From: Octopus vulgaris
Lineage: Eukaryota
DNA: 64,000 nucleotides
Direction: 5' to 3'
NCBI GenBank assembly: GCA_951406725.2
Contig: OX597839.1
Span: 15,376,001 to 15,440,000, forward strand
Shown: positions 19,945-21,338 of the stretch, piece by piece
How the letters are laid out: every line of letters begins with the position of its first letter
How positions within the stretch are numbered: the stretch's first letter is position 1
Notes under the pieces: generated by a model
Database searches by the model: none
What the model saw: only the letters and a program-made list of their open reading frames with translations
Told to the model about the DNA's origin: nothing
Translations under genes and position numbers: made by a program

Positions 19945-20231
19945 GATTTCAACAATTGAGGGTAAAATTAATTAATTATTAATCAATTTCACCAAGTGTT
20001 CAGTATGCAAAGGGACCATTTAAGGCGAATTCAAATTATTACATTATATAAAAGGGCTTAGTAAAATAAATTACTTTGCCGCATACTGAACTCATTAGAA
20101 ATAGCAGCTAAAAAACTTTTTTAAAGCTATTTCTAATACTTAAAGAAAACCTCTCTCATATAGTGTTTGCTCAACTCAACTCACGAAAGTTTGGGGGTAA
20201 AGACATCAAAAAATCAAATGCAAAGGTTATT

Positions 20232-20283
20232 TGAGAACGTACGTTTCAAGATTAGTCAACACGACACTTCTATCATCAGCTCA
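20232..20283 (-). ncRNA. Type I hammerhead ribozyme (predicted)
   Basis: ugag-CUGAUGA-u aga..ucu u-GAAA-cguacg-UU-cuca: canonical core, palindromic stem III. Confidence 0.7.
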
Positions 20284-20791
20284 GAAACTCCTTGGTTTGG
20301 ATTTGAAAACACTGAAAGTGAGAGCCGACCCTTTCGGCTTCTCATCGCTTTCGAAGATCTGCTCGTAACTAACAGTGCCAACAAACTCAAATATGCAAGC
20401 GAAGAATTTCTGTTCTCCCCTTTCCACCAGCGTGGGTTAAAATCAGCAAACACTATGCTTATTTCGGTAAAATCCGAAGCATTAATTAGAGGGAGATTAA
20501 TTATAATTTCAACAATTGAGGGTAAAATTAATTAATTATTAATCAATTTCACCAAGTGTTCAGTATGCAAAGGGACCATTTAAGGCGAATTCAAATTATT
20601 ACATTATATAAAAGGGCTTAGTAAAATAAATTACTTTGCCGCATACTGATCTCATTAGAAATAGCAGCTAAAAAACTTTTTTAAAGCTATTTCTAATACT
20701 TAAAGAAAACCTCTCTCATATAGTGTTTGCTCAACTCAACTCACGAAAGTTTGGGGGTAAAGACATCAAAAAATCAAATGCAAAGGTTATT

Positions 20792-20843
20792 TGAGAACGT
20801 ACGTTTCAAGATTAGTCAACACGACACTTCTATCATCAGCTCA
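20792..20843 (-). ncRNA. Type I hammerhead ribozyme (predicted), second tandem copy
   Basis: Identical to 20232-20283. Confidence 0.7.
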
Positions 20844-21031
20844 GAAACTCCTTGGTTTGGATTTGAAAACAACTTTTACCCACGCTGGTGGAAAGGGGAG
20901 AACAGAAATTCTTCGCTTGCATATTTGAGTTTGTTGGCACTGTTAGTTACGAGCAGATCTTCGAAAGCGATGAGAAGCCGAAAGGGTATGCTCTCACTTT
21001 CAGTGTTTTCAAATCCAAACCAAGGAGTTTC

Positions 21032-21083
21032 TGAGCTGATGATAGAAGTGTCGTGTTGACTAATCTTGAAACGTACGTTCTCA
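21032..21083 (+). ncRNA. Type I hammerhead ribozyme (predicted), inverted-arm copy
   Basis: tgag CTGATGA tagaagtgtcgtgttgactaatctt GAAA cgtacg TT ctca. Confidence 0.7.
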
Positions 21084-21269
21084 AATAACCTTTGCATTTG
21101 ATTTTTTGATGTCTTTACCCCCAAACTTTCGTGAGTTGAGTTGAGCAAACACTATATGAGAGAGGTTTTCTTTAAGTATTAGAAATAGCTTTAAAAAAGT
21201 TTTTTAGCTGCTATTTCTAATGAGTTCAGTATGCGGCAAAGTAATTTATTTTACTAAGCCCTTTTATAT

Positions 21270-21338
<69 letters not shown>

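Follow-up and report, generated by a model that had tools for sequence, protein, structure and literature searches.

A 560-nt hammerhead-bearing unit of Octopus vulgaris with the insertion layout of a Penelope-like element

Results

Direct and inverted copies of one unit in a (TA)n array

The window, a 64,000-nt stretch of Octopus vulgaris DNA analysed as a whole, holds a short repeat in three copies. On the minus strand, a full 560-nt unit without an ORF (19946..20505; period 560) is joined to a second tandem copy of 366 nt (20506..20871), which is truncated at its 5′ end and is the equivalent of a pLTR. Two untemplated bases (20872..20873) form the head-to-head junction with an inverted, 5′-truncated copy of 399 nt on the plus strand (20874..21272). 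The direct copies (19946-20871) total 926/560 = 1.65 units, and the second has 1 mismatch to 19946-20311 over the 366 nt compared (20090 A versus 20650 T). The preliminary description of the locus had claimed 1.65 near-identical direct units, which these copies bear out, and an inverted arm of 396 bp; the arm is there, but its length is 399 nt.

Read on the hammerhead-sense strand, the arm is at the 5′ side; it aligns to a template at 20442..20043 with 397/400 columns identical, the differences being two substitutions (20326 and 20327) and the loss of 1 nt near 20437. It starts 131 nt out of register with the adjacent direct copy and covers 20312-20442, a segment that is missing from that copy. 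Across 20043-20311, where all three arms overlap, there is 1 differing site. Near-identity of this degree points to one young insertion event. Both outer ends of the insertion are 3′-type ends, that of the inverted arm lying 97 nt inside the 3′ end of the unit (templates 19946 versus 20043), and at both outer junctions the element shares 2-3 nt of TA-type microhomology with the flank. A self-comparison found no further copies of the unit in the window.

The adjacent substitutions at 20326-20327 are private to the direct copy and convert a weak hairpin into a stronger one; on the plus strand they pair with 20335-20336 at a predicted probability of 0.99. In this folding model the two changes may be a quasi-palindrome correction after insertion.

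The insertion sits between the left (19483..19945; TRF period-2 array 19483-19944) and right (21273..21714; TRF array 21265-21714) parts of a (TA)n target array, as expected from the earlier claim of (TA)n on both sides. On the plus strand the array is interrupted by 23 G and 1 C on the left and by 35 G and 0 C on the right; this like bias for G and not C in both flanks argues for a single interrupted array rather than a fold-back mirror. The target is thus an AT-rich microsatellite with the same strand bias either side, within which no target-site duplication is readable. Such a target counts for little as evidence because microsatellites are abundant in the window (103 TRF rows).

Predicted hammerheads with a canonical core and weak helices

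A type I hammerhead descriptor gave 5 matches on both strands of the 64-kb window, 3 of them in the 560-nt element and 2 in an unrelated 353-nt family described below. Motif 1 (20232..20283, minus strand) was found by descriptor and constrained fold, with a predicted cut at 20236|20235. Motif 2 (20792..20843, minus) is an identical descriptor match in the partial copy, with a predicted cut at 20796|20795, and motif 3 (21032..21083, plus) is a descriptor match in the inverted arm. The cores are at 20279 (minus), 20839 (minus) and 21036 (plus). A canonical-core match arose in 1 of 20,000 dinucleotide shuffles of the unit (frequency 5e-5), a null that is optimistic because the descriptor was composed with the motif already known.

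The cores at 20279 and 20839 are separated by 560 nt and both have complete helices, so that hammerheads occur in two consecutive units, as in retrozymes. The two predicted cuts, likewise 560 nt apart, would release the cut-to-cut RNA monomer of 560 nt put forward previously (20236..20795, minus strand), a prediction drawn from the distance between them.

Helix I comprises 4 bp and a further, distal stem. Helix II is interrupted, has U-U at its base and is without the G10.1-C11.1 pair. [quoted passage not shown] In constrained folding, the active hammerhead fold lay above the minimum by 3.9 kcal/mol in an 86-nt piece and by 9.0 kcal/mol in the circle. The preliminary description had spoken of three canonical-core hammerheads: the three motifs and the canonical core bases stand, whilst the helices are weak and helix II is atypical. 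We therefore describe a predicted ribozyme with a conserved core but weak, PLE-like helices.

Searches with Rfam gave no match at the gathering score in the whole window. At E up to 10 there were 13 rows in 19900-21300, none of them a hammerhead. The best row, mir-54 (E 7.3e-5, 35 bits against a cut-off of 70), was rejected, as it merely mirrors the inverted repeat, and the CRISPR-DR50 rows are due to an AT-rich hairpin.

Coding content and fold of the monomer

The longest stop-to-stop ORF in the unit (123 aa) is on the plus strand, antisense to the ribozyme. A Pfam scan of this ORF gave no match at the cut-off (best E 0.052), in agreement with the earlier claim that the unit has no coding homology and with the lack of coding capacity of retrozymes, and no RT plus GIY-YIG ORF lies inside the 560-nt repeat period.

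The monomer folded as a circle reached -150.5 kcal/mol against -114.9 ± 5.3 kcal/mol in shuffles (0 of 100 equally low; z -6.7), and z was still -3.75 after two local hairpins were taken out. The antisense strand is also well folded (z -5.4). As controls, 6 pieces gave z from -2.35 to +2.0, with part of the 3′ UTR of a neighbouring PLE at -0.09. Together with a GC content of 0.35 (35%), this is the combination of self-pairing and GC below 45% seen in retrozymes. Long-range helices are predicted around the hammerhead domain (20162..20454, minus; circular-fold pairs at probability >0.9), pairing 20162-20171 with 20445-20454 and 20176-20190 with 20426-20440.

We compared the predicted pairs of the fold with 40 listed variants of the family (16 more exist), of which 20 fall on unpaired positions, 7 keep a pair and 13 break one. 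The 13 breaks, against a null of 16.9 ± 2.6 (P 0.10), are not a significant sparing of predicted pairs, nor is it significant, at ~10% variable sites, that 0 of the 40 fall on invariant core bases. The modelled self-pairing of the monomer is thus real, and the variant test gives no significant sign of selection at the RNA level.

A Penelope-like element and other repeats nearby

An autonomous Penelope-like element (PLE; 28168-31821, ORF on the plus strand), 5′-truncated at about 29222, lies ~7 kb from the 560-nt element. Its RT and GIY-YIG ORF (29124-31028, plus) matches RVT_1 (E 5e-8) and GIY-YIG (E 4e-4, below the cut-off) in Pfam, and the linker is CX4CX2C. The ORF is followed by ~790 nt of ORF-free 3′ UTR, with a U3-A8 minimal hammerhead-like motif near 31727 (by eye). 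The element has a 1,061-nt inverted arm (98.7%), a head-to-head layout with a short hairpin at the inverted junction, and TA-repeat ends. Its presence shows that a PLE of like layout and target was recently active in the genome of the window.

Comparison of the 560-nt unit with the 3′ UTR of this PLE gave a score of 95 against 98.7 ± 9.1 (189 of 300 shuffles as high), and the best tblastx E of the unit against the PLE and the 353-nt family was 0.066. With no significant similarity the neighbour is not established as a partner; the unit does not have its 3′ end in common with the window's one PLE, and that PLE was the one compared in the search for an autonomous partner, which found none. There is a 50-nt, 70% AT-rich match between 20199-20248, immediately 3′ to the hammerhead, and the 3′-terminal sequence of the PLE (28180-28229 / 31760-31809), with an E of 0.002 in a small pairwise search; the whole-unit test was not significant.

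The 353-356-nt family (27568-28160, sense minus), seen by self-comparison as one full and one partial (237-nt) copy in (TA)n, ends 7 bases from the inverted arm of the PLE. Its hammerhead core starts with U3 and its circular fold has z -4.7. That it is unrelated to the 560-nt unit, as stated in the preliminary description, agrees with a score of 61.5 against a null of 63.8 ± 8.1 (179 of 300 shuffles as high). The 560-nt unit, this hammerhead family and the autonomous PLE thus lie within one 12 kb, all (TA)n-ended.

The window also has ORF pieces that by eye resemble CR1/L2-type RTs, broken by TA-rich arrays (25021-26850 and 56745-59128, minus), and broken pieces that by eye resemble LTR-retrotransposon protease, RT and RNase H (38311-40361, minus). 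A 634-nt inverted self-match (92%) at 4984-5608 is formed by a dispersed SINE-like repeat present there in two opposed copies; this repeat recurs at 3120, 33456, 54173 and elsewhere in the window. Another dispersed repeat has pieces 88-98% identical in both orientations (53545-54067, 63187-63833 and 18127-18244).

The family in public sequencing runs

The stretch is contained in 20 of the 24 listed public runs, from 10 studies and under 4 organism labels; 15 of the listed runs contain half or more of its words, and none of the listed holders is recorded as RNA. We placed the contigs of four runs (X1, X4, X13 and X14) on the monomer 19946-20505 only. There were 4,708 monomer contigs in X1 and 1,809 in X13, which has a different organism label; most were 90-100% alike, and all 30 monomer bins were covered in 4/4 runs. 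The unit is a member of a high-copy, moderately diverged repeat family, and the DNA-type contig counts of X1 and X13, which are not a copy number, agree with the many genomic copies of a retrozyme. Two runs guessed to be RNA had 197 and 55 monomer contigs, which reveal neither strand, ends nor circles. Two short patterns had 0 exact matches each in a metagenome collection.

Two contigs of X1 join 20504/20505 back to 19946/19947, at depths of 43.8 and 92.7. Each differs by one letter at the joint and, with the version in the window, there are three versions in one phase; we infer that the X1 contigs are variant bubbles on a common tandem joint. In X14, one contig returns from 20453 to 19946. 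Other inversion joints occur at 20020/20123 (X4 and X14) and at 20050/20086 (X13). The inversion joint of the present locus (20311/20442) and the exact, unvaried tandem joint are absent from the joints listed in the four runs. In run contigs the layout thus recurs, in its tandem phase and in inversions.

At 20326/20327, nearly all the depth in the four runs has the letters of the inverted arm and not those of the direct copy, which argues against the arm being a mirror copy of its neighbour made by the assembler. At 20150, 20175 and 20207 the three arms agree on letters that are in the minority in X1. The shared minority letters, together with the majority letters of the arm, argue for a single template lineage and a young event.

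Depth drops steeply across 20478-20505 in X1 and X13, so most copies may lack this segment; summed contig depth is no copy number, and the drop may also be due to an edge or to indels. Contigs ran past the monomer ends 107 times in X1 and 53 times in X13. Among the 24 loose ends listed (185 further exist), none leads off the 5′ side for >31 letters.

Two further features concern X14. One contig leaves the unit at 20236, adjoining the predicted cut; we make no use of it as evidence because chance could yield one such end among the 24 listed. The depth over the 3′-most 110 nt (19946-20059) is also 10 to 50 times that over most of the remaining unit, with one contig at a depth of 686, perhaps because this fragment lies within an abundant host sequence.

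Discussion

Comparison with known systems

Non-LTR retrozymes were defined by Cervera and de la Pena 2020 (PMC7229834), who named PLEs as a strong candidate mobiliser. Li, Clavereau and Pollet 2026 (bioRxiv 10.64898/2026.07.22.740005) argue that animal retrozymes are non-autonomous PLE sequences: retrozymes co-occur with PLEs and, in Xenopus, 24/57 retrozyme families are homologous to 22 known elements, 21 of which are PLEs. In the same preprint, 1/9 predicted retrozymes cleaved. Partial tandems, an inverted 5′ copy, (TA)n targeting and non-autonomous Chlamys families were described by Craig et al. 2021 (PMC8557442), and inverted pLTRs and in-trans mobilisation by pLTR sequences by Arkhipova et al. 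2013 (PMC3846280). The retrozyme-PLE link, the partial tandem, the 5′ inversion, (TA)n targeting and non-autonomous PLEs have therefore all been described already. The preliminary description presented the locus as a structural link between retrozymes and PLEs, which overstates its novelty, a PLE mobiliser having been proposed in 2020 (PMC7229834) and argued for in 2026 (10.64898/2026.07.22.740005).

The present unit resembles animal non-LTR retrozymes in being an ORF-less, low-GC tandem with one type I hammerhead per unit, in having two consecutive complete motifs and a highly self-paired predicted monomer, and in its weak helix III with a palindromic tetraloop. The U-U pair at the base of helix II also occurs in axolotl HHR_Amex2. 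Its 560 nt falls inside the 51-972 bp of the 2026 survey (10.64898/2026.07.22.740005) but exceeds the 170-400 nt of retrozyme circles on northern blots (PMC7229834). It differs from animal non-LTR retrozymes in its long and interrupted helix II, and in that the locus has 1.65 copies only plus an inverted arm, a feature that the accessible text of PMC7229834 and of 10.64898/2026.07.22.740005 does not describe. Cleavage and circle formation are putative for the present unit.

Endonuclease-bearing PLEs with Neptune/Nematis/Naiad-type targeting (PMC3846280, PMC8557442) have the same partial tandem with a head-to-head inverted copy on the 5′ side, the same microsatellite target without a readable target-site duplication, and a hammerhead near the 3′ end. 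The layout at the locus, with its partial tandem (560 + 366 nt, truncated 5′ on the hammerhead-sense strand) and the inverted 5′-truncated copy at its 5′ end (20874-21272), is the one described for PLEs (PMC8557442), so that the earlier reading of it as PLE hallmark geometry holds; the bias towards (TA)n and the existence of non-autonomous families fit the same description. Unlike these PLEs, the period is ORF-less, the inverted junction has only a 4-bp palindrome, and the outer ends are 97 nt apart rather than separated by a 30-40-nt tail; such a tail need not be present, and bases may have been deleted later. Chlamys PLEs such as MRC1 are likewise short and ORF-less, with pLTRs and head-to-tail insertions, but they are algal and of a clade mostly without hammerheads (PMC8557442). 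Non-autonomous Chlamys PLEs generally share a 3′ end with an autonomous family, whereas no such partner of the present unit was found in the window. The hammerhead is of the kind found in PLEs (PMC4209133), with a short helix I, a large helix II and a small palindromic helix III for a dimeric fold, except that it is without the G10.1-C11.1 pair and was not found adjoining an ORF. PLE hammerheads cleaved poorly in vitro (PMC4209133). Judged on these features, the 560-nt element would work like a non-autonomous PLE and has the sequence characters of a non-LTR retrozyme.

A model for the insertion and its alternatives

We think it probable that the 560-nt unit is a complete non-autonomous, PLE-dependent element (a non-LTR retrozyme), which was inserted in one event by a PLE RT/endonuclease that primed on both target strands. 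A tandem locus of the family would be transcribed, its hammerhead-sense strand giving a multimer that stays uncut or a circle formed by re-ligation. A PLE protein with an endonuclease, probably of the Neptune/Nematis type, would nick the (TA)n array; the CX4CX2C linker marks the Neptune and Nematis clades and has been proposed to direct microsatellite targeting (PMC8557442). Primed by one target 3′-OH, the RT would start at an internal site (19946/20506) and copy 926 nt, past two predicted cuts. The opposite target strand would prime a second cDNA of 400 nt from template 20043, and the two cDNAs would be joined head to head with the addition of two bases. Of this scheme we infer which enzyme acted, what RNA served as template, the order of the two primers and any activity of the ribozyme.

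Several features bear on these steps. Since the first cDNA crosses two predicted cut sites, a linear monomer released by cleavage would not have served as its template, which would be a circle or a multimer left uncut. Priming of a cDNA on both target strands would give 3′-type ends at both outer ends. The anole PLE protein cleaves and extends both target strands with an internal RT start; it is a predicted dimer and mainly uses uncut RNA (PMC11167929). In the partial tandems of PLEs a full-length copy adjoins a truncated second copy (PMC8969392), a rule by which the element is 560 nt long and non-autonomous. The recent insertion of a non-coding hammerhead RNA by a PLE RT, proposed from the start, is thus favoured by the youth of the event, the geometry, the (TA)n target, the ORF-less period and the autonomous PLE of like layout ~7 kb away, although the unit shares no significant sequence with the 3′ UTR of that neighbour. 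The strong self-pairing of the monomer, the high copy number and the recurring tandem phase and inversions are further points in its favour. Points against it are that no autonomous partner was found, that the inversion joint and the unvaried tandem joint of the locus are absent from the joints listed in the four runs, that the outer ends differ by 97 nt and no target-site duplication is readable, that the active hammerhead fold is above the minimum and helix II is without G10.1-C11.1, that the family variants do not significantly spare predicted pairs, that depth drops over 20478-20505, and that the unit is longer than the circles seen experimentally.

It is possible, if unlikely, that the family exists as a 560-nt circular hammerhead RNA copied in trans by a Neptune-type PLE protein with which it shares no sequence, a dimer priming both target strands at two internal sites of the circles. 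One cDNA would then run 1.65 times round the circle and the other 0.7 times.

The main alternative to a PLE-dependent 560-nt element is that the unit is no independent non-coding element but the 3′ UTR/pLTR, an end free of ORFs, of an autonomous PLE, the locus then consisting of 560-nt and 366-nt 5′-truncated tandem fragments, made by a jump of the RT to the 3′ start, and an inverted fragment. The neighbouring PLE, with its ~790 nt of ORF-free 3′ UTR and hammerhead-like motif, makes 560 ORF-free bases compatible with this, and the helices, a short helix I and a small palindromic helix III beside a long helix II, are those of the PLE type. Among metazoan minimal hammerheads, the majority are solo motifs 'probably related to truncated PLEs', some of them on opposite strands and 100-700 bp apart (PMC4209133), and contigs do extend past the monomer ends (107 in X1, 53 in X13). 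However, X1 has tandem joints of one phase that vary in their letters, which suggests that the 560-nt period recurs, and by the published rule the first copy of a partial tandem is full-length (PMC8969392). The unit also folds far below chance, which the UTR piece of the neighbouring PLE does not, and among the 24 loose ends listed (185 further) none goes >31 letters off the 5′ side. On balance we regard a truncated autonomous PLE as unlikely.

We consider it improbable that a monomer or dimer was inserted first and that the tandem and inverted parts arose later, by template switching during DNA replication in the unstable (TA)n. The 2-3 nt of TA-type microhomology at both outer junctions would suit such an origin, and a subsequent deletion could have left the arm 97 nt short. 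Against it, the arm covers 20312-20442, missing from the adjacent copy, and has the family-majority letters at 20326/20327; the neighbouring PLE is also head-to-head, and inversion joints of the family recur elsewhere.

An assembly or library artefact (a fold-back chimera, or a collapsed or expanded repeat) is very improbable. Tandem and inverted PLE structures are difficult to assemble (PMC8557442), and the inversion joint of the locus is absent from the joints listed in the runs; but a fold-back should mirror the adjacent sequence and flank, whereas the arm is 131 nt out of register and departs from the direct copy in favour of the majority letters of the family, and the two flanks share a G-only strand bias.

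Twin priming produces 5′ inversions whose inverted and direct parts, copied from one linear RNA, abut without overlap; mobilisation by an AP-endonuclease LINE with L1-type twin priming is scarcely credible here, despite the CR1/L2-type RT-like fragments seen by eye in the window, as the two parts have 400 nt in common (or, on a multimer, stand ~290 nt apart), a geometry on which we reject it, and the unit ends in neither poly(A) nor a simple-repeat tail.

Significance

The mobilising enzyme of animal retrozymes has so far been argued from co-occurrence and from pLTR sequence similarity. A hammerhead unit with a PLE signature is evidence of another type, the footprint of the insertion reaction. 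In the open-access literature, a scope that leaves Repbase, Dfam and most subscription papers outside, we found no insertion-footprint argument for a hammerhead-bearing ORF-less unit and nothing relevant on octopus and hammerhead ribozymes; the accessible text of PMC13282606 does not mention ribozymes. The long dsRNA that the preliminary description raised for the arm would arise from inverted insertions of the PLE type in general, if transcribed.

The locus modestly strengthens the published retrozyme-PLE hypothesis and opens no new one. As the family is young, high in copy number and present under several organism labels, genome-wide counts of junction types could separate circular from multimeric templates, and likewise one-primer from two-primer insertion. 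If the reading in which circles are copied in trans is true, this genome would be a natural system in which to show that PLE enzymes integrate retrozyme circles.
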